Shown: piece by piece, positions 1,228 to 21,388 of the stretch
Position numbering within the stretch: position 1 is the stretch's first letter
Layout: the number at the start of each line of letters is the position of its first letter
Assembly (NCBI RefSeq): GCF_000021865.1
Contig: NC_014034.1
Location: 2,910,001 to 2,942,000, forward strand
Length of the DNA stretch: 32,000 nucleotides
Source of the DNA: Rhodobacter capsulatus SB 1003
Lineage (GTDB): Bacteria > Pseudomonadota > Alphaproteobacteria > Rhodobacterales > Rhodobacteraceae
Direction of reading: 5' to 3'
Notes under the pieces: generated by a model
Told to the model about the DNA's origin: nothing
Database searches by the model: none
Seen by the model: only the letters and a program-made list of their open reading frames with translations
Position numbers and translations under genes: made by a program

Positions 1228-1611
1228 TCATCCAAGTTGCTCCTGCTGTTCGAGCCATTCCATGGGGAACGGCTTCAGCGCCCGTTCCAGCGACACATCC
1301 CGCCCCTGCGTCCCGCAAACTATCGCTTCCACGATGTCGGGCGAGAGCAGTGTCAGGCGCAGGATGCGGGTCATGTAGGACTGTGCGATGCCCTCGCGCT
1401 TGGCCAGTTCGGCGATGGTGGCGTACTCGCCCGACTCCAGCAGGCGCTTCCAGCGGAACGCCCGCGCCAGCGCCTTGACCAGTGTATTGTCCGTCCGGCG
1501 TGGCGGCGATGCACCGTTCGGCAGTTGCATTTCTTTCCGCCCGCCGCGCTTCACGACGCGGAACGGTACGTGGAGCGTCACCGTCTCGGGGATCGGAGCC
1601 GCGCGGGTCAT
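1228..1611 (-). CDS. small HTH-type accessory protein of the serine recombinase operon (127 aa)
   Basis: The internal ATG of track ORF 1228..1767 gives MTRAAPIPETVTLHVPFRVVKRGGRKEM...EYATIAELAKREGIAQSYMTRILRLTLLSPDIVEAIVCG. The segment ATIAELAKREGIAQSYMTRILRL reads as an HTH. Its ATG overlaps the recombinase stop (ATGA at 1608-1611). Confidence 0.7.
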   Translation of the reverse strand: MTRAAPIPETVTLHVPFRVVKRGGRKEMQLPNGASPPRRTDNTLVKALARAFRWKRLLESGEYATIAELAKREGIAQSYMTRILRLTLLSPDIVEAIVCGTQGRDVSLERALKPFPMEWLEQQEQLG

Positions 1612-2933
1612 GCGGCTTCCCCAATGCCCCCGGCCAGCATCTCGCGAGCCAGACCTCCGAGCCCATCGACGCGCAGTCGGACATTCAGACCATCTATGCC
1701 GATTTCGACGCGCTCGACCAGCAGCGCTACGATGCGAGCCTGTTCGGCGGGGAAGAGTTCGTCCCACAGCGGGTCGAACTTTTGCAGGGCCTCGCGGGCG
1801 TCGGTCTCTGTGATATCGGCAGCCTGCGTTCGCGCGGCTTTCCAGGTGCCCGCGACGATCTCGGGTTGGTGGAACGCGGCGCGGAGCCGGTTGATCACGG
1901 CCGCTTCGACCTCGCCTGCGGGCACGCGGCCGACCGGGCAGGATCCTGCGCCATGCTTCAGCACCGTCTGGCTGACATAGTAGCGATAGAGTCGCCCACC
2001 CTTGCGGGTGTGCGTCGGTGAGAACGCGGCGCCATCGGGACCGAAGAGAAGCCCCTTCAGCAGCGCGGGTGTGTCAGCCCGGGTCCGCGCGGCACGCTTG
2101 CGCGGGCTCTCCTGCAGGATGGCGTGAACCTTGTCCCAAGTCTCGCAATCGATGATCGGGTCGTGCTCGCCCGGGTAGCTGTCGCCTTTGTGGACCGCCT
2201 CGCCGATGTACGCGCGGTTGGACAGCATCCGATAGAGGTACTTCTTGTCGATCCTGTTGCCGCGTGGCGTGCAGAGGCCCCGCGCGCCTACCTCGCGTGC
2301 CAGCAGCGTGCAGGAGCCGATTTCGATGAACCGAGAGAAGATCCAGCGCACATGCGCGGCGTTGTCCTCGTCGACCAGCAGCTTCCGGTTTGCCACCAGG
2401 TAGCCGAAGGGCGGCACCCCGCCCATCCACATCCCCTTCTTCCGGCTGGCGGCGACCTTGTCGCGGATGCGTTCGGCGGTCACCTCCCGCTCGAACTGGG
2501 CGAAGCTGAGCAGGATGTTCAGCGTCAGCCGCCCCATGGAGGTCGTCGTGTTGAAGGATTGCGTCACCGAGACGAAGGTCACGCCGTTCCGGTCGAACAC
2601 CTCGACCAGCTTGGCGAAGTCGGCGAGCGAGCGGCTAAGGCGATCGATCTTGTAGACCACCACCACGTCGACCAACCCGTCCTCGATATCTGCCATCAAC
2701 CGCTTCAGGCCGGGGCGCTCAAGAGTGCCGCCGGAGATGCCACCGTCATCATACTGGTCGCGGACGAGCACCCAGCCCTCGGAGCGCTGGCTGGCGATGT
2801 AGGCCTCGCAGGCCTCGCGTTGCGCGTGGAGGCTGTTGAATTCCTGCTCCAACCCTTCCTCGGAGGATTTCCGGGTGTACACTGCACAGCGTAGCTTGCG
2901 GACGAGCTTCGTTTTTTCGGGCGGCTTCGTCAT
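1608..2933 (-). CDS. large serine recombinase (resolvase/invertase N-terminal domain plus recombinase domain), 441 aa
   Basis: Track ORF 1608..3089, trimmed to MTKPPEKTKLVRKLRCAVYTRKSSEEGLEQEFNSLHAQREACEAYI (serine-recombinase catalytic region YTRKSS). Further matches are DVVVVYKIDRLSRSLADF, TTSMGRLTLNILLSFAQFEREVTAERIRDK and the large C-terminal extension typical of phage/ICE serine integrases. The ATG at 2933 overlaps the upstream gene's stop (ATGA). Confidence 0.9.
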   Translation of the reverse strand: MTKPPEKTKLVRKLRCAVYTRKSSEEGLEQEFNSLHAQREACEAYIASQRSEGWVLVRDQYDDGGISGGTLERPGLKRLMADIEDGLVDVVVVYKIDRLSRSLADFAKLVEVFDRNGVTFVSVTQSFNTTTSMGRLTLNILLSFAQFEREVTAERIRDKVAASRKKGMWMGGVPPFGYLVANRKLLVDEDNAAHVRWIFSRFIEIGSCTLLAREVGARGLCTPRGNRIDKKYLYRMLSNRAYIGEAVHKGDSYPGEHDPIIDCETWDKVHAILQESPRKRAARTRADTPALLKGLLFGPDGAAFSPTHTRKGGRLYRYYVSQTVLKHGAGSCPVGRVPAGEVEAAVINRLRAAFHQPEIVAGTWKAARTQAADITETDAREALQKFDPLWDELFPAEQARIVALLVERVEIGIDGLNVRLRVDGLGGLAREMLAGGIGEAA

Positions 2934-3385
2934 GACCGCCCCCTGTGGTTCTTGAGGCCGAAGAACACCCAGCCGTTCCAGCGGGTGCCAGTGATGCCGC
3001 GCGCGATGGCAGACAGCGACTTGTAGGGCCGCCCCTGCCACTCGAAGCCATCGGCGGTGACGGTGACGACATACCCGACGCCCTGCCATTCGCGCAGGAG
3101 GCGTGTGCCTGTGATGGGGCGGTCGCGGTCGAGGCGCATTCCGCGCTTCTTCTTGTCGCCGCCGTCCAGTTCTTCGCCCAGTCTTTCCAGCCGCCGGACG
3201 GTCTCGGGCTTCAGCCCGCCATAGGCGAGTTCCTGGATCCGGTAGGCCAGGCGGGATTCAAGGTAGCGCCGGTTGAACGGCGGCGGTTCGCTGTCGAACA
3301 ACTCGCGCCACTGCTTTTTCAGGTCGGGCGTCGGTGTGGTCTTCAGCGCGGCCAAGCGCGCGGGGATGGGGTCGTGTGTCGTCAT
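2930..3385 (-). CDS. DUF2924-like protein commonly encoded upstream of large serine recombinases
   Basis: Track ORF 2930..3421, trimmed to MTTHDPIPARLAALKTTPTPDLKKQWRELFDSEPPPFNRRYLESRLAYRIQELAYGGL...REWQGVGYVVTVTADGFEWQGRPYKSLSAIARGITGTRWNGWVFFGL. This matches my recollection of the DUF2924 signature; the family name is unverified. Confidence 0.8.
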   Translation of the reverse strand: MTTHDPIPARLAALKTTPTPDLKKQWRELFDSEPPPFNRRYLESRLAYRIQELAYGGLKPETVRRLERLGEELDGGDKKKRGMRLDRDRPITGTRLLREWQGVGYVVTVTADGFEWQGRPYKSLSAIARGITGTRWNGWVFFGLKNHRGRS

Positions 3386-3399
3386 GCGGTCTCCGTTGG

Positions 3400-3597
3400 C
3401 TACTGGGTTGCATGACGGCATCGGTCGGCCGGATAGTGTAGGTGAATTTCTCTAGTATCGTCAGTAGGTTCGTCCTGAGGTTCGTCCTGTTGGCGTTGCA
3501 TCAAGCGCACCAGCCCGAGGGCGAGCAGCCCGCACAATTCGGCGCGGCGCTCGGCGGGCGTCATCTGGTCGGGTGACAGTGGATTGGGGCGTTTCAT
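3400..3597 (-). CDS. small hypothetical protein (65 aa), first gene of the recombinase operon
   Basis: Track ORF; same strand and 14 nt upstream of the DUF2924-like gene. Contains an in-frame perfect 12-bp tandem duplication (AGGTTCGTCCTG x2, 3466-3489) encoding QDEPQDEP. Confidence 0.5.
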   Translation of the reverse strand: MKRPNPLSPDQMTPAERRAELCGLLALGLVRLMQRQQDEPQDEPTDDTREIHLHYPADRCRHATQ

Positions 3598-3742
3598 GCG
3601 AGCAAGTCCGTGTTGGCTTGCCTTGCCTCTACTCAGGCGAACCGGAAAACGTCCCGCAGGTTAAGATGGCGGTTATGCACAAGGCCGGACTCGACTCATG
3701 GTTGATTCATCGTTTAGAACATAATCAGAACAGGCCGGCCAT
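3598..3742. promoter_or_regulatory. divergent promoter/operator region between the recombinase operon and the plus-strand block
   Basis: The only AT-rich stretch for kilobases (gttgattcatcgtttagaacataatcagaac). It contains TGATT-N15-AATCA (3703-3727), flanked by GGCCGG at 3683 and 3733. No -35/-10 elements are assigned. Confidence 0.35.
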
Positions 3743-4996
3743 TTGCGAGGTATTCCCGTGGGTTCCGATCTCAAGAAATTTGTTAATCCGAAGTTTCTCA
3801 AAACCATTGATCCGGCCTTGATGCGGGCGTTGTTCGTTCGGCACTTCGGCGAGGATGAACTGCCTGTGTCATTCGAGGGAGAGGCCCCAACCATTCGCGC
3901 AGCTCTGGCGGCGCATTTCGAAGGAACCGTTGCCGGTTGGAACGCCGGAATGGTCGCCGATTTGCATCGCGTTGCCGAGCTTGGAACTAGCGAGGGCATG
4001 CAGCTTATTCTGAACGAAGCCCGTCGTCGTGGCGTGGTTCTTTATCCCGAGCCCGAAACTGACGATGCCGAGGCAGCGCCCATTAGCCACGATCCCAAAC
4101 ACGTCGCGCTTTACACCTACCTGCTGCATCACCGCGTTTTCGAGGCCGCAGCCGACTTCCATGCGCTTCGTGCGCCGACCTCGCCCGCAGAGTTCCGCGG
4201 GCCGGAACGCGACTTGGGAGCGGACCTGACCGAAGAAATGACCGAGGCTTTCAAGGCTGCAGTGATCAATCTGTTCTCGCAGGATCTGCAGGGTCAATAT
4301 TGCCGTCTTGGGCCCTATGAGGAAGATGGCGAAATCAACCTGGTCATCAGCCACGGGGCGCAAGTCACCACAACGCCGGTGATCACGGGCGACCGGGAAG
4401 AGATCATCACCCTTCGCGCGGTGAAATATGCAGTGCTGCGCTACTCCCCAATTGAAGGACGCCTGTTCGTGGGTGGCGTGGTCAAGGCGCAGCAAGGCGA
4501 GATCGCCGAGCTTTTTGCCCGGCATATCCTGAGGCGGCCAGGCTTCTTCTCTGGGCGGGACGCGCGCGATCTCTATACGCTCGATCCGATCAGCGATGCC
4601 GGGCCCGATTTCGCGTTCCAGCATCGCTATGACGAGACCATCAAGGAGGTGCGGATCGTTACCGCCGCCGCTGACCTCTTCGAGTGGGATGAAGAGGATC
4701 AGCGCTGGCGTCATGTGCGCAGTTGGGAATCGAAAGACGCGTCCGGCGGTGCGCTCACGCACTTCCGGGGCAGCGAGGTGCGGTTCGGCCGGGGATGGCG
4801 GTTGGGCGAGATCACCTTCCGGGTCGCATTCGAAACCGGTGCAAAGCGACCGGCACAGGTCACAGTGCGGCTGAAACCGCCAGGGACGCTCGCCTTCCGC
4901 CGGACGCGGTTCGAAAAGGCGATCCACACGCTGGTTCAGCGCAATGGGCTAGAGAAGGACCGCGATGCTGGCATGGTTGTGGACGCGGCTGAGTGA
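3743..4996 (+). CDS. hypothetical protein, ~412-417 aa, no recognisable domain
   Basis: Track ORF with good coding periodicity read by hand. The start is TTG 3743 or GTG 3758. Codons end in T/A more often than in neighbouring genes. Confidence 0.7.
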   Translation: MRGIPVGSDLKKFVNPKFLKTIDPALMRALFVRHFGEDELPVSFEGEAPTIRAALAAHFEGTVAGWNAGMVADLHRVAELGTSEGMQLILNEARRRGVVLYPEPETDDAEAAPISHDPKHVALYTYLLHHRVFEAAADFHALRAPTSPAEFRGPERDLGADLTEEMTEAFKAAVINLFSQDLQGQYCRLGPYEEDGEINLVISHGAQVTTTPVITGDREEIITLRAVKYAVLRYSPIEGRLFVGGVVKAQQGEIAELFARHILRRPGFFSGRDARDLYTLDPISDAGPDFAFQHRYDETIKEVRIVTAAADLFEWDEEDQRWRHVRSWESKDASGGALTHFRGSEVRFGRGWRLGEITFRVAFETGAKRPAQVTVRLKPPGTLAFRRTRFEKAIHTLVQRNGLEKDRDAGMVVDAAE

Positions 4997-5894
4997 GGGC
5001 GGCGCTCGGGTCGCGATCTCGGGCCGGGCGCTGAGCCGTTTTCCCGCAAACGACATTGAGCGCCTCTTGCGGGCGCAGGTGCTGATTGAAGAGCGCAAGG
5101 CCGATACCTGGTCGGTCTGTGCCGAGTGCGACTGCGGGCTAGACGCGCGCCCCGTCGAACAATTGGGTGATGCGTTCCGGGCCTGCTGCCCGCACGATCA
5201 GGCCGAAGACATGATCCTCCAGAAGGACGATCTGCGCCGCTTTTCGGTCGACGTCGACCGGCTTGTGACCCGGATTTCTGCCAGCGGGAATCTTGGCGGC
5301 GCGGTCGCCCGCATTGCTGAAGGCGTCTGGCTGATGGGGGACACCCCGTCCGGGCATGCCGTGGTCCTGTCATTCGATGCTGAAAATCTGGTTGCGCCGG
5401 GCGCGGTAATGGCGATCAGGGCGGCCGTGGGGCCGAAACCGATCATGGCAATCGTCCACGACCTTTCCCTGACAATCGCTGTCAGGTTGCGGGAGGTCGG
5501 GGTCGAGCCCCACGAAATTGCGGCGGTTTTCAAGGCGGGGTCGGATGGCGTGGAACGCCTCGTCCTTGATCCGCCATCTTCAGTGCCGCGCCTCGTCGTG
5601 AAGCTTTCGGCGCAGTCGATCACTCTCGACGGGCGTCGGCTCGACCTGCCGACACAGATGTTCGCACTGTTTCGTCTGCTGATCGAGCAATCCTCCAAGC
5701 GTGATCCAGTCCTGAAGAACCAGGAGATCGAGACGCAGACCGGCCGGCCGCCCAACCAGATCATCCGAGACCTTCGGAAAGCGCTGGTCAGTTGTGGGCT
5801 GACCAGCGACCAGGCAAAGGCGTTGGTCGCGACAGTACATGCTCGCGGCTACCGGCTCGGCCTTGCCCAAGCCGAAGTGGTCGTCGAGCCCTGA
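4965..5894 (+). CDS. hypothetical protein with N-terminal Cys cluster and C-terminal OmpR/PhoB-like winged-helix region, 309 aa
   Basis: Track ORF. ATG 4965 lies 32 nt inside the preceding gene. The Cys cluster reads SVCAECDCG...FRACCPHD. The C-terminus reads SITLDGRRLDLPTQMFALFRLLIEQSSKRDPVLKNQEI...IIRDLRKAL...VHARGYRLGL, like a trans_reg_C-type winged helix. Confidence 0.7.
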   Translation: MLAWLWTRLSEGGARVAISGRALSRFPANDIERLLRAQVLIEERKADTWSVCAECDCGLDARPVEQLGDAFRACCPHDQAEDMILQKDDLRRFSVDVDRLVTRISASGNLGGAVARIAEGVWLMGDTPSGHAVVLSFDAENLVAPGAVMAIRAAVGPKPIMAIVHDLSLTIAVRLREVGVEPHEIAAVFKAGSDGVERLVLDPPSSVPRLVVKLSAQSITLDGRRLDLPTQMFALFRLLIEQSSKRDPVLKNQEIETQTGRPPNQIIRDLRKALVSCGLTSDQAKALVATVHARGYRLGLAQAEVVVEP

Positions 5895-6002
5895 GGCCGC
5901 CACACACAATCCACACATAACAAACACACGGCAATCACACCGGCAGCGGCGGGCTGAGCGGCACATTCGGAACCACAGCAACATGTTCCGAGGTGCTCCC
6001 GC

Positions 6003-6596
6003 ATGCTTCCGCCGATTTCCCCCTCCGACCTTGCCACACTGATCGACGAAGCGGCCTTTGCCGCGCGCCGCCTGCATCGCAAGCTGGTGCTGCCCGCCGC
6101 CGATCTCGACGATCTCTGCCAAGACCTGCTGGTCGACCTGATCTGTCGGTTGCCGGGTTTCGACGCTCGCCGTGGCAGCATCGGCGCCTTCGCCAACATC
6201 GTCCTGCGCAACCAGTCCTCGCGGATCGCGATCCGCCATCACCGCCAGCGCCGCGCACAGGGTGGCACGGTTCTGTCGCTGGATGCGCCCGTTTCCGGCG
6301 GCACCGAGTCGCTGGGTTGCATGCTGGCAGAGGCGGACAGTCTGGCCGCCTGGCATGGTCAGGACCGCTCCGCCGTGGAAGATGCCGAGACCCGTCACGA
6401 TCTCGCCCGGGCGCTGGGCGACCTGCCGGAGGATGCCCGCGGGCTTTGCGCGGCACTTGGCACCTGCGCTGTCGCGGAGATTGTCGAGCGTACCGGCACC
6501 TCCCGCTCCGCCCTCTACCGCCACATCGCCCGCCTGCGGCTTGACCTCGCCATGCGCGGGTTCGGGGCGGAGTGGGACGCCTCGTATGCGGCGTGA
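6003..6596 (+). CDS. ECF-like sigma-70 family RNA polymerase sigma factor, 197 aa
   Basis: Region-2-like DLDDLCQDLLVDLICRLPGFDARRGSIGAFANIVLRNQSSRIAIRHHRQRR and region-4-like LGDLPEDARGLCAALGTCAVAEIVERTGTSRSALYRHIARLRLDL (HTH). Confidence 0.75.
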   Translation: MLPPISPSDLATLIDEAAFAARRLHRKLVLPAADLDDLCQDLLVDLICRLPGFDARRGSIGAFANIVLRNQSSRIAIRHHRQRRAQGGTVLSLDAPVSGGTESLGCMLAEADSLAAWHGQDRSAVEDAETRHDLARALGDLPEDARGLCAALGTCAVAEIVERTGTSRSALYRHIARLRLDLAMRGFGAEWDASYAA

Positions 6597-6609
6597 GTAG
6601 AGGACCGAC

Positions 6610-6966
6610 ATGGAGATGATCGTCATGCCCCTCACCGAATTCACGCCCGCAAAGGCCCGGCCGCTTACCGACATCGAGTTCTGCGCCTGGATCGGCCAGG
6701 CCATGCCGGGCGACCGGCTTGAGTATCATCCCGGCTTTCTCGGAATCGATACCACGGCGGTGATTTCCACCTTGCCGGAACCAGATCGCCGCAGGCTCGG
6801 AGCGCTGGCCAGTGCCGCCCACCGCGCCTTCGAGGCCGCGCTGGTGCATCTGGTGCAGGTCCGGGTCGGCCCCGACCGCTTCGCCTATCTGGCCATCGCG
6901 CGCACCAAGCCGCGCCATGCGCCGATCCCGCTTTCCCAACTCATCGCGACAGAGGAGGCCGCCTGA
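6610..6966 (+). CDS. hypothetical protein, 118 aa
   Basis: Track ORF with high GC3. GAGG lies upstream of the ATG, 14 nt after the sigma gene stop. Its stop overlaps the next start (TGATG). Confidence 0.65.
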   Translation: MEMIVMPLTEFTPAKARPLTDIEFCAWIGQAMPGDRLEYHPGFLGIDTTAVISTLPEPDRRRLGALASAAHRAFEAALVHLVQVRVGPDRFAYLAIARTKPRHAPIPLSQLIATEEAA

Positions 6967-16801: not shown

Positions 16802-17992
16802 TTGTTCGCGTTCGTTGACGAAACTGGGAATACTGGCTCGAACATCTTCGACGAAGCGCAGCCAGATTTTTTCACGGGAGCGCTCATTACCAAGTCAAAC
16901 TTCGATGTTCTGCACAAGAAATCGCTGAGCGCCCTCTGCAGGAAACACGGCATCGCGTCCCTGCATGCCTCGGTCCTTGGCTTCGGACCGATCGAGAAGA
17001 TCGCGCCCGATCTCCTCAACATCCTCAAGAGGGTCGACGCGAGGTTTTTCGTATCGCGTGTCGAGAAGCGCTATCTGGTCGCCACCAAGCTCTACGACAC
17101 CTTTTTTGATTCCGGCGAGAACCCGGCGGCGAACTGGAATGCCTACAACGTGAGGGTTCTGAAGCTGACCCTGTGCTTCAAGGTTGCGACGATCCTGACC
17201 GAAGAGATTGCCCGCGAGTTCTGGTCAATGCTGATGGCCCGCAACGAGAAACAGGCGCGCGCGAAGATCCCGGCCATTTGCGACGCCATCCTTGAGAACG
17301 TGCACCTGCTTGCCGACCAGAGGTCGAGGGATGTCGTCACAGAAACCCTGTTGTGGTCGCGCGGCCACCCGGAAGCCCTCGACATCTTCATCGCGGGGCG
17401 CCAAGCCAAGAACGGGCACATGCCGAACATGGTAGCATTCGCCAACCTGCTCGACGGCTTGGAAGGGTTCTCGAAACGGTGGAACCGCCCTCTAAAGAAG
17501 ATCATCCATGATAGGCAGTCGCAATTCGAGAGTTCGCTTGAAGAGTGGCACCGCTTGTTTTCAAACGCCTCCTGCGAGCCAATCCACCGACCCGGTGAGA
17601 CAATCGTTCTACGCAAGGTCCCAGGTTCGACCTTCGAGGTCTCGAGCTCCGACGATAGCGCGGGGATACAGATCGCAGATCTGACGCTCTGGCTGTTTCG
17701 GCAGTTCCTCGCCGGGAAGGAACTCCCCGAGGGTTCGGCTGCTCTCCTCAGCTACGTGTTCAAGAAGGGCTACCAGCAAGACTTCTCGTTTCGTGGTGTC
17801 GGGGCCCAGGTGGAAGTGCAACTCCGCGAGATCATGGAAAAGGATATTCCTCCCGAGGCGATGGAAGCAGGTCGACGTCTGCGCGAAGAGCAGGAACAAC
17901 TCCGACAGCATCTCATCGCCAAATACGAAGAAGATGGTCTAATGCCGTATCAGCGCGGCCCGTTGAAGTTGGTGTCGCCCGAAGACGACTGA
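16802..17992 (+). CDS. DUF3800-family protein, 396 aa
   Basis: TTG start. N-terminal FAFVDETGNTG and later SAGIQIADLTLWLF match the recalled DUF3800 signature (DE...QxAD). GC is clearly lower than in flanking element genes. Confidence 0.7.
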   Translation: MFAFVDETGNTGSNIFDEAQPDFFTGALITKSNFDVLHKKSLSALCRKHGIASLHASVLGFGPIEKIAPDLLNILKRVDARFFVSRVEKRYLVATKLYDTFFDSGENPAANWNAYNVRVLKLTLCFKVATILTEEIAREFWSMLMARNEKQARAKIPAICDAILENVHLLADQRSRDVVTETLLWSRGHPEALDIFIAGRQAKNGHMPNMVAFANLLDGLEGFSKRWNRPLKKIIHDRQSQFESSLEEWHRLFSNASCEPIHRPGETIVLRKVPGSTFEVSSSDDSAGIQIADLTLWLFRQFLAGKELPEGSAALLSYVFKKGYQQDFSFRGVGAQVEVQLREIMEKDIPPEAMEAGRRLREEQEQLRQHLIAKYEEDGLMPYQRGPLKLVSPEDD

Positions 17993-18133: not shown

Positions 18134-18387
18134 GGGTCCAGAGAAGGGTCCAGCCGGGGTCCAATCGGCTAACCCATTGAGTTCTTGGTTCCTTCCTAGC
18201 GATATTCGTATGCTGGCGGGCGAAGCGCGGGACATCGCCAGCGACAGGGCCGGATTTTTGGGAAGCCACCCGGAAGCCACTGCCGTCTGAACCCGCCTGA
18301 AACAACGCAAAATCAGACCCTTGAAGCTGGACACCCCTGGTGGCCGCTGGACCCCACTTGGAGTCCAGTCTGGACCCCGGAGTCCGG
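18134..18387. promoter_or_regulatory. array of 8 copies of G(G/A/T)GTCCAG upstream of the ParB-methyltransferase gene (candidate operator/late-promoter region)
   Basis: Forward copies at 18134, 18146, 18157 (11-12 bp spacing), 18361 and 18380. Reverse copies (CTGGAC(A/C)C) at 18327, 18347 and 18370. The copies at 18361-18377 form a palindrome, GAGTCCAG-t-CTGGACCC. All lie in a 436-bp gap with no credible ORF. Confidence 0.45.
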
Positions 18388-18428
18388 AAGCCAGGGGTAT
18401 CCATCCTGATCCGAGGAATGACCCGCCC

Positions 18429-19805
18429 ATGACGCTGAGCTTCGCCCCAGAGCGGATCGAGATGTGGCCGCTGGCCAAGCTCCAGCCCTACGCAAGGAAC
18501 GCGAAGGCCCATCGCGCGGACCAGGTCGCGAAGATCGCCGCCAGCATGGCGGAGTTTGGCTGGACGGTGCCCTGCCTCGTGGCAGAGGACGGTGAGTTGA
18601 TCGCGGGCCACGGCCGGGTGCTTGCAGCCACGCAGTTGGGGCTGACCGAAGCACCGGTAATCGTGCTTGGGCATCTGACCGAAGCGCAGCGCCGGGCTTA
18701 CCGGATCGCGGACAACAAGCTGACCGAACTCGGCACCTGGGACGAGGCACTGCTGTCAGCGGAGCTGAACGACCTCTTGGCCGAGGATTTTGACCTGTCG
18801 CTGGTCGGCTTTTCGGACGGCGAGTTGGACAAGCTGCTGGCCTATGTGCCGGAGGGGGACGGGGAAGAAGGTGCCGCTGGGGGCTCCGTGCCGCCGGTGA
18901 CCATTCCCGAACCGCCCCGCAATCCGGCGTCTCGCACTGGCGACCTGTGGATCCTCGGCGACCATCGGTTGCTCTGCGGCGACAGCACCAGCGCGGCCGA
19001 CGTGCGCCGCCTGATGAACGGCGAGCGGGCGATCCTGTTCGCGACCGACCCGCCCTATCTGGTGGACTACGACGGCTCGAACCACCCCACCCGCAACAAG
19101 GATTGGTCCGCGTCCTATGGCACGACCTGAGACGACAGTTCGCAGGGCGCGGAGCTCTACGACGGCTTCATCGCCGCCGCGGTCGCAGAAGCCATCACTG
19201 AGGATGCTGCCTGGTACTGCTGGCACGCCTCCCGCCGCCAGGCGATGCTGGAGGCCTGCTGGGAAAAGGCGGGGGCCTTCGTCCATCAGCAGATCATCTG
19301 GGTGAAGGACCGCGGGGTTCTGACCCGCTCGCACTACCTCTGGAAGCACGAGCCCTGCTTCATGGGCTGGCGCCGCCCGAACCGCCCGCCGAAGGTGGCC
19401 GAGCAGACGCTGCCCTCGACCTGGGAGATGCCGTCCTTTGCCAAGGACGAGCGGCCCGACCATCCGACGCCGAAACCCCTCGATGCCTTCGGGATCCCGA
19501 TGCGCCAGCATGTGGCGCGGGGCGGTCTCTGCTACGAGCCCTTCTCGGGCTCCGGTTCGCAGATCATGGCGGGCGAGGCCAACGGCCGCCGCGTCTTCGC
19601 AATGGAAATCAGCCCGGCCTATGTCGATGTCGCCGTGGAGCGCTGGCAGGCCGAGACTGGCAAGGAGACCATCCTCGACGGCGACGGCCGGACCTTCGCG
19701 CAGGTGAAAACCGAGCGGCTTGGTGACGGCACCGAACCCGCGACCGATACGCCGGACACGGACGCCGCCCCCGAACCCGCGCGAAAGCGCAAGACCCCCG
19801 CGTGA
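18429..19805 (+). pseudogene. ParB-like nuclease domain / N6- or N4-DNA methyltransferase fusion interrupted by one in-frame TGA (19128-19130)
   Basis: Track ORFs 18321..19130 and 19245..19805 are in the same frame, and the 114 nt between them are stop-free with good coding sense. The ParB domain reads MTLSFAPERIEMWPLAKLQPYARNAKAH...LIAGHGRVLAA. The MTase carries motif IV FATDPPYLV, then ...YGTT*DDSSQGAELYDGFIAAAVAEAITEDAAWYCWHASRRQAMLEACWEKAG..., and motif I YEPFSGSGSQIMA (beta-class order). Confidence 0.8.
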
Positions 19806-21312: not shown

Positions 21313-21388
21313 TGGTGCCCAGAGCCGGAATCGAACCAGCGACACGCGGATTTTCAATCCGCTGCTCTACCAACTGAGCTATCTGGGC
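21313..21388 (-). tRNA. tRNA-Phe (anticodon GAA), 76 nt with encoded CCA
   Basis: The reverse complement reads GCCCAGATAGCTCAGTTGGTAGAGCAGCGGATTGAAAATCCGCGTGTCGCTGGTTCGATTCCGGCTCTGGGCACCA. It has a 7-bp acceptor stem, D-arm GCTC/GAGC, anticodon stem GCGGA/TCCGC with loop TTGAAAA, and a T-arm with the GGTTCGATTCC motif. Confidence 0.95.

Follow-up and report, generated by a model that had tools for sequence, protein, structure and literature searches.

A conserved gene pair between the serine recombinase and a sigma-like gene of Rhodobacterales temperate phages as a candidate SOS-gated regulatory module

We analyzed a window of 32,000 nt from the chromosome of Rhodobacter capsulatus SB 1003 (the whole stretch, positions 2,910,001 to 2,942,000 of NC_014034.1) and, within it, two overlapping genes here called A and B, which an earlier note on this DNA had singled out as either a defense cassette or a lysogeny-control pair. 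The genes lie in a prophage remnant between a divergently transcribed large serine recombinase and a gene of the sigma-70 family, and the signals around them suggest a regulatory module of a temperate phage family that may be gated by the host SOS response. The argument turns on the following features of the window.

Genes and signals at the A/B locus

1608-3421, minus strand: integration module, with the large serine recombinase at 1608-3089 and a DUF2924 gene at 2930-3421, divergent from A and B
3656-6015, no strand: exchangeable module, comprising the promoter region, A, B, the B-to-sigma intergenic region and the first sigma codons
3717-3731, plus strand: GAAC-N7-GAAC direct repeat GAACATAATCAGAAC, candidate host LexA (SOS) box
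3758-4996, plus strand: gene A, 412 aa from a GTG start, with a predicted helical N-terminal domain and a beta-rich domain of RdgC-like fold
4965-5894, plus strand: gene B, 309 aa, with four N-terminal cysteines, a central alpha/beta domain and a C-terminal winged helix of OmpR/PhoB type
4965-4996, plus strand: overlap of A and B, 32 nt; an overlap of 29-41 nt is kept across module types
5903-5939, plus strand: four direct CACA repeats (starts 5903, 5914, 5925 and 5936) with 11-bp phasing, candidate B binding array
5968-5990, plus strand: stem-loop CGGAAC N11 GTTCCG, abutting the sigma Shine-Dalgarno sequence with a one-base overlap
6003-6596, plus strand: sigma-70-family gene, extracytoplasmic function (ECF)-like (Pfam Sigma70_r2, E 1.5e-5; C-terminal helix-turn-helix; phrog_1740, 'RNA polymerase sigma factor')

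Both open reading frames (ORFs) described in the earlier note are real and lie where it had put them, apart from the start of the larger one. ORF A is listed as 3743-4996 from a TTG, and because its homologs (more than 200) measure 411-413 aa and begin MGSDLKKF, we take the GTG at 3758, which follows a Shine-Dalgarno sequence GAGG at 3746-3749, as the true start. The ATG of B at 4965 falls 32 nt before the end of A and is preceded by AAGGA at a distance of 7 nt. Nearly all loci in which both ORFs are complete show an overlap of 29-41 nt, mostly 32, which argues that it did not arise by chance and suggests, in line with the earlier proposal, that A and B are translationally coupled. The unusual codon usage and the divergence from the recombinase across an AT-richer gap were also described correctly: GC content at third codon positions (GC3) is 0.69 in A and 0.75 in B versus 0.80-0.85 in the flanking phage genes, and the intergenic region is lower in GC. 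No family in Pfam, NCBIfam, PADLOC or PHROGs holds A or B, so that the pair, as had been supposed, stands outside known families; by these searches A and B are two protein families without annotation and in no described family.

The AlphaFold2 (AF2) model of A (predicted local distance difference test score, pLDDT, 82; predicted template modeling score, pTM, 0.76) comprises a helical N-terminal domain of ~145 residues and a beta-rich domain, and its best Foldseek matches are RdgC (2owl, 2owy) and CENP-N in the PDB and phage RdgC-type proteins in BFVD. The matches to RdgC reach E values of 1.1e-4 in the PDB and 3.8e-5 in BFVD with a probability of 1.0 in both, at template modeling (TM) scores of only 0.3-0.42 and a root-mean-square deviation (rmsd) of 8-13 Å. 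The Pfam RdgC model (PF04381) matched none of 39 diverse A-family members, a PDB sequence-profile search with A returned zero matches, and hhalign of A against E. coli RdgC or an RdgC alignment gave a probability of 0.1%, the RdgC alignment being of low diversity (enterobacterial sequences at least 85% identical). Membership of A in the RdgC family was rejected on this profile comparison and the likeness of fold retained, such that A is predicted, by Foldseek only, to carry an RdgC-like fold. The A family counts 573 representative clusters at E ≤ 1e-3 and has no Pfam model; when its distant members were compared with PHROGs, one touched phrog_3767 ('nucleoid associated protein') and seven the unannotated phrog_37634. 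Residues C187 and H204 hardly vary, down to relatives of ~20% identity, and the hairpin register of the model would have them face each other on neighboring strands. Across the genera Paracoccus, Phaeovulum, Cereibacter, Gemmobacter and Pseudotabrizicola (loci L003-L017), A is 93-97% identical, B 84-92% and the recombinase 87-91%, which makes A the most conserved protein of its type and, judging by these identities, indicates recent horizontal spread together with unusually strong constraint on A.

The model of B (pLDDT 86) shows an N-terminal domain of ~95 residues, a central alpha/beta domain and a C-terminal winged helix. The N-terminal cysteine cluster and the OmpR/PhoB-type winged helix read from the sequence in the earlier note both hold: all B types retain C52, C55, C57 and C75, whereas some lack C74, and a PDB profile search gave 20 or more matches over residues 207-303, all to response-regulator DNA-binding domains (best E 1.3e-3). 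Residues 210-300 of the model follow the winged-helix order of a beta platform, three helices and a C-terminal hairpin, and Foldseek aligned the winged helix with the isolated domains of PhoB, AdeR, SaeR and CovR at TM scores of 0.6-0.72 and a probability of 1.0. Pfam gave no match to the B of the window at E ≤ 0.1, Trans_reg_C (PF00486) included, and the PDB sequence-profile search with the N-terminal domain returned noise only. PADLOC-DB v2 gave no match to A; for B it gave two weak sub-threshold matches to CARF proteins, in their winged-helix part (E 0.004 and 0.04). R. capsulatus R121 encodes a protein 100% identical to B. Profile and structure searches, which the earlier note had proposed, thus confirm the winged helix of B and leave A with a tentative likeness to the RdgC fold and no confident family homology. 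A receiver domain in the center of B was considered and rejected: residues 100-205 contain no invariant Asp across 64 B sequences and, with no conserved acidic pocket, would not form a working receiver. Full-length response regulators align to the B model with an rmsd of 10-19 Å, and no kinase gene lies in the neighborhood of B.

Conservation, exchange and paired repeat classes

Relatives of A were found in 155 genomes in a scan of one genome per species, nearly all from Rhodobacterales with some from Hyphomicrobiales, and in 104 more viral contigs from IMG/VR; synteny was counted in 160 loci, 80 kept from genomes and 80 from IMG/VR. Wherever the contig was long enough, the genome loci followed the order recombinase (-), DUF2924 (-), A (+), B (+) and, farther on, sigma (+). 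B came after A in 80/80 of the viral loci, with a divergent recombinase upstream in 50/50 and the sigma gene downstream in 67/68. The two genes therefore co-occur and stay adjacent in every locus that allows the comparison, and by this gene order the pair is a fixed backbone element of a temperate phage family of Rhodobacterales and not, as the earlier note had it, an occupant of a variable cargo slot. A variable slot does exist, downstream of B and in one clade only (A 47-48% identical to that of the window), where 1.1-2.7 kb of extra genes lie between B and the sigma repeat array:

L061, 12235-13893: insert between B and the array
L065, 12246-12935, minus strand: insert between B and the array
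L077, 12252-14693: insert between B and the array
L063, 12436-14045, minus strand: insert between B and the array
L070, 12179-13972, minus strand: insert between B and the array

The inserted genes encode a GmrSD/DUF262 restriction-like protein (also matched by PADLOC PDC-M55C and HEC-05), an HNH endonuclease, a DUF4238 protein and several proteins without a match. Judged by these contents, it is this slot downstream of B, empty in the window, that serves the phage family as its true cargo hotspot. Searches of 50,697 phage records (megablast of the element, tblastn of A and B) gave no match and hence no isolated phage with the pair, and the literature on DUF2924 with serine recombinases, on 'RdgC-like' proteins and on sigma factors of Rhodobacterales prophages yielded no description of an A/B module.

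Comparison with four close relatives (L057-L060) delimits the segment within which A and B are exchanged. The DNA is 82-91% identical to the window up to 3655-3658 and again from 6016-6060 onward, and nothing aligns between those points except one short stretch in L060. Accordingly, A is 50% and B 33-36% identical in these loci, compared with 78-98% for the flanking genes and 87-98% for the recombinase, DUF2924, ORF118 and AAA_24. Because homology breaks at both edges and resumes beyond them, we conclude that 3656-6015 is exchanged as one unit. The separate acquisition suggested in the earlier note thus stands insofar as the segment is a swapped mosaic module, and falls insofar as it implied foreign cargo, since the swapping is among related phages.

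Two loci carry an alphaproteobacterial prophage under a Firmicutes label: L060 (CP059262.1, labeled as an Exiguobacterium profundum metagenome-assembled genome), in which the recombinase, DUF2924, the sigma-like gene and the genes that follow are 79-97% identical to the window, and L067 (WNWL01000008.1, labeled Oceanobacillus sp.), in which the recombinase and DUF2924 are 81-88% and the sigma-like gene and ORF118 54-55% identical. Mis-binning or contamination is the probable source of these labels, not transfer across phyla.

Upstream of A, the direct repeat GAACATAATCAGAAC lies 27 nt ahead of the start codon and is the sole GAAC-N7-GAAC match in the window. Counted from the A start, a GAAC-N7-GAAC motif falls at -37 to -44 in 74 of the 77 distinct upstream regions taken from genomes and in 75 of 78 from IMG/VR, although the sequence around it differs between module types. 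Across 64 distinct anchored segments, conservation is 90-100% at the eight positions of the motif and 30-70% in the flanks, and the 7-nt spacer takes 28 different forms. Alphaproteobacterial LexA sites have been described as GTTCN7GTTC and GAACN7GAAC (PMC3091678), the Caulobacter LexA site matches the same motif (PMC9578287), and the GTTC and GAAC consensus motifs were used for the Rhodobacterales species D. shibae (PMC6473078). The box upstream of A equals this published site, and host LexA would be expected to bind it. Several module types have a spacer that can itself be read as a -10 hexamer (TATGAT, TAAGAT) located 16-17 nt after TTGCGC or TTGACC, so that LexA would cover the -10 element in those types. 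The alternative that the GAAC box is a site for B was rejected, as the box is invariant across B types with differing recognition helices and equals the host LexA site. Terminator-like matches in 3300-6100 were at chance level.

The second signal stands ahead of the sigma gene. The four-fold CACA pattern occurs only once in the window, and none of 100 shuffles contains it. Nearly every locus has an array of four 11-bp repeats ~64-108 nt ahead of the sigma ATG, with a periodicity score that beats 200 shuffles in most loci. Where cargo has been inserted after B, the array remains beside the sigma gene, and because it stays there when cargo separates it from B we assign it to the sigma promoter. 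The repeat core falls into four classes, which pair by module type with four classes of the B recognition helix:

CACAC-type core: recognition helix (I/V)RDLR, also IVRDLR, and IIRDLR in the B of the window; wing RGYRLGL
CCACG core: recognition helix V(I/L)(N/K)E(L/I)R, for example VINELR; wing RG(L/M/V)TI
CCCAC(C) core: recognition helix LIRELR (type-2 B); wing not distinct
TCCCAG core: recognition helix LVREMR; wing not distinct

Domains of OmpR/PhoB type bind tandem direct repeats one helical turn apart, as in pho boxes and CtrA boxes. Since the swapped block encodes no DNA-binding protein other than B, this binding mode leads us to assign the array to B, which probably binds the four repeats ahead of the sigma-like gene. 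Between array and gene, the stem-loop is 77% paired across 13 diverse sequences, with compensatory changes across module types in 5/9 pairs; its score was reached by 0/500 shuffles, and slid controls were 23-40% paired. RNAalifold predicted nothing on the sigma leader, and it was the manually specified hairpin that passed pair counting. This stem-loop could serve translational control of sigma or be a protein-binding inverted repeat.

Distant relatives offer further evidence for joint action of A and B. At ~20% identity, A relatives keep the divergent serine recombinase/DUF2924 neighborhood, and their partner proteins show weak, collinear similarity to B. One such protein, P0373 (L166, 1757-4024), is a single 755-aa ORF that is A-like over residues 1 to ~395 and B-like over 448-745, with a match to Trans_reg_C, and that adjoins a large serine recombinase; this A-B fusion is one instance only, and an assembly frameshift is possible. 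No recognizable box lies upstream in the distant relatives L164, L166 and L170. In L170, a metagenome contig, a gene for a 208-aa LexA-like protein (6298-6924; LexA_DNA_bind and Peptidase_S24) is found directly upstream of, and co-directional with, the A and B-like genes, beside DUF2924 and a serine recombinase, a placement that ties the pair to SOS-type control independently of the box.

The prophage around the module

The recombinase of the window carries Resolvase, Recombinase and Zn_ribbon_recom domains. On the plus strand, B is followed by the sigma-70-family gene, several PHROG families of unknown function, an AAA_24 ATPase and DUF6511 and, farther to the right, by a Cas4-domain exonuclease, an AAA_30/UvrD_C helicase, a Toprim/VapE primase, a RuvC-like resolvase and a ParB-methyltransferase. 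PDB sequence searches gave no matches for a 118-aa ORF (6610-6966), a 65-aa ORF (3400-3597) or the sigma-like protein. The ParB-methyltransferase is split in the window (18321-19130 and 19245-19805) and forms one 572-aa ORF in the relative L238. No terminase, portal or capsid gene follows the methylase genes, and the element ends before a tRNA-Phe (21313-21388, minus strand) and host transporter genes (substrate-binding protein, HlyD, AcrB). By its gene content the window copy is a prophage remnant of ~20 kb. A 44-kb IMG/VR contig with the same A type (97% identity) continues into a C5 methylase, a GpA terminase, a lambda-family portal and a capsid protein, which implies that the A/B family belongs to complete temperate tailed phages of ~44 kb. 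Among the hosts of a complete prophage with the module type of the window are Paracoccus aminovorans HPD-2 (L008) and Phaeovulum vinaykumarii DSM 18714 (L004).

Other features of the element and its relatives are recorded here as observations in their own right. Between the genes for the RuvC-like resolvase and the ParB-methyltransferase, a DUF3800 gene (16802-17992) stands out by its markedly low GC content (0.57). It is missing from the related loci used for comparison and is possibly a moron or cargo gene of the window copy. Positions 1-1100 of the window have a much lower GC content (0.51-0.53) and close with a short minus-strand ORF whose C-terminus, …KKRLSISLEVEDYDALRAMAEGHRPPLSLQYILNVAVKDLLEKH, looks like a ribbon-helix-helix protein (CopG/antitoxin-like), and which may mark the element boundary or be an addiction-type gene. 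In Ruegeria intermedia (L001, 2590-7404), a 1604-aa Type ISP restriction-modification enzyme is encoded just beyond the recombinase end of the related prophage, adjoining IS21-family transposase genes.

Interpretation and comparison with known systems

The reading that we favor, to which we assign a probability of roughly one half, is that A and B make up a regulatory module gated by the SOS response and stand first in the rightward (early) transcription unit of lambda-like temperate phages of Rhodobacterales and Hyphomicrobiales. In the lysogen, host LexA on the GAAC-N7-GAAC box would keep A and B silent; upon DNA damage, activation of RecA and self-cleavage of LexA would allow both proteins to be made together from the coupled genes. 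B, through its winged helix and with its Zn/Cys domain, would then bind head-to-tail to the four 11-bp-phased repeats with which its recognition helix co-varies and would switch on the sigma-like gene, whose product would drive the lytic program. Regulator and operator would travel together under this model, and 3656-6015 would therefore be swapped whole between otherwise near-identical phages. The weakest step is that of A, which with its predicted RdgC-like fold may be a co-factor acting with B physically, or acting on DNA or RecA. Lysogeny control, one of the two roles suggested in the earlier note, is the one that agrees with the evidence.

Several points weigh against this reading. Every step of it rests on sequence alone, and whether B is an activator or a repressor cannot be read from sequence. 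A short GAAC box is expected by chance about once per window and 54% of shuffles have one; because the single match is not significant alone, the case for a LexA box rests on conservation among related sequences. A consensus scan of 3300-6100 gave no sigma-70 promoter, and in the module type of the window no normally spaced -35/-10 pair can be placed around the box. The likeness of A to RdgC is one of fold, at low TM scores (0.3-0.42) and with no profile support. A CI-type gene (XRE helix-turn-helix plus S24 peptidase, divergent from a Cro-like gene) was looked for between the integrase and replication genes and none was found there; the late phage region is missing from the window, and a CI-type repressor may be encoded elsewhere in the phage. 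Finally, with no structural genes in the remnant, the module may not lead to induction here any more.

The joint swapping of regulator and cognate repeats in a single mosaic unit recalls lambdoid immunity regions and would also be expected if the segment defined hetero-immune types, with B as a prophage repressor (a CI analog) that shuts the sigma promoter via the four repeats and A as its sensor or antirepressor. The position of the module beside the integrase and the lack of a CI-like gene from the integrase to the early genes agree with such an arrangement. We nevertheless consider it unlikely, because an operon behind a conserved LexA box should be silent during lysogeny and active once DNA is damaged, whereas a maintenance repressor requires the reverse, and because overlapping, co-expressed genes are awkward for a repressor/antirepressor pair. 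A somewhat less probable explanation still is that A, B or both are a recombination directionality factor for the large serine recombinase, or its regulator, made on induction only. SOS-limited expression suits such a factor, RdgC, the closest fold match of A, is a recombination-associated protein, and A relatives at ~20% identity, the fusion included, still lie divergently beside a large serine recombinase. This linkage may, however, merely reflect conserved prophage architecture. A and B show no co-evolution with the recombinase (A 50% and B 35% identical where the recombinase is 87-90%), it is DUF2924 that constantly overlaps the recombinase, and the repeats that co-vary with B precede the sigma gene instead of lying at the attachment site.

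The other role suggested in the earlier note, a sensor/effector pair serving as anti-phage defense or superinfection-exclusion cargo, drew on the proximity of the integrase, GC3 below that of the flanks and the absence of a known family for A or B, to which the weak sub-threshold PADLOC matches to the winged-helix part of CARF proteins may be added. It is now very improbable. Neither gene has an accepted PADLOC match, and the pair is present in essentially every family member at one position, whereas defense cargo varies in presence and absence and such variable behavior was found in the other slot, downstream of B (GmrSD, HNH, DUF4238). No nuclease, NTPase or pore domain was found in A or B, and LexA control together with sigma-linked repeats suggests the phage's own regulation.

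The SOS-gated reading has a stronger form, which we put forward only tentatively: there would be no phage repressor at the switch, host LexA would be its only brake, and A and B would be a new SOS-to-sigma relay in which an RdgC-fold protein is the obligate partner of a Zn/Cys activator. RdgC acts on RecA, and within such a relay A might read the state of DNA or of RecA, or might lock the decision via RecA or LexA. If this were true, A and B would be a widespread induction module linked to large serine integrases far beyond the phage family. Rhodobacterales dominate many marine and freshwater communities, their prophages are common and the induction decisions of these are largely unexplained. 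The module, present in no fewer than 155 genomes at species level and 104 viral contigs, offers a testable circuit from LexA box to A/B, array and sigma and an entry point to two unannotated protein families, and its co-varying classes of B helix and repeat would be a natural set of orthogonal regulator/operator pairs.

The favored reading shares parts with several known systems. In lambdoid immunity regions, a regulator and its DNA sites are swapped as one block between near-identical phages. The A/B regulator and its cognate sites appear to be exchanged as a mosaic block in the same manner, with the difference that there is no CI/Cro pair and that the module appears to be SOS-induced and not expressed in the lysogen. 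With pho-box promoters the locus shares a winged helix and an apparent target of four direct repeats, spaced by one helical turn (11 bp), upstream of a promoter; the CtrA box of alphaproteobacteria reads TTAA-N7-TTAA. Unlike OmpR/PhoB regulators, B has a four-Cys N-terminus and neither a receiver phospho-acceptor Asp nor a nearby kinase gene. RdgC (the recombination-associated protein of E. coli, a nucleoid-associated DNA-binding ring), the phage RdgC-type proteins and the CENP-N/Chl4 fold are the top Foldseek matches of A in two independent libraries, and A differs from RdgC in its additional helical N-terminal domain of ~145 aa, in TM scores of 0.3-0.42 and in having no Pfam RdgC match. In GIL01, host LexA is the prophage repressor, aided by gp7, and among the LexA-controlled antirepressors cited in the same source are Tum of phage 186, AntC of N15 and the Gifsy antirepressors (PMC4551915). 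Like these systems, A/B would place a host SOS box on the first induction genes, so that damage is read via LexA and not via self-cleavage of CI, and if host LexA is the main brake, GIL01-type logic would extend to tailed phages of alphaproteobacteria. The 412-aa A, with its predicted RdgC-like fold, and the Zn/Cys winged-helix B are unrelated to gp7, Tum and Ant and are followed by a phage sigma factor. The logic of an SOS-gated prophage switch is thus already known, and what is new is the A/B family.

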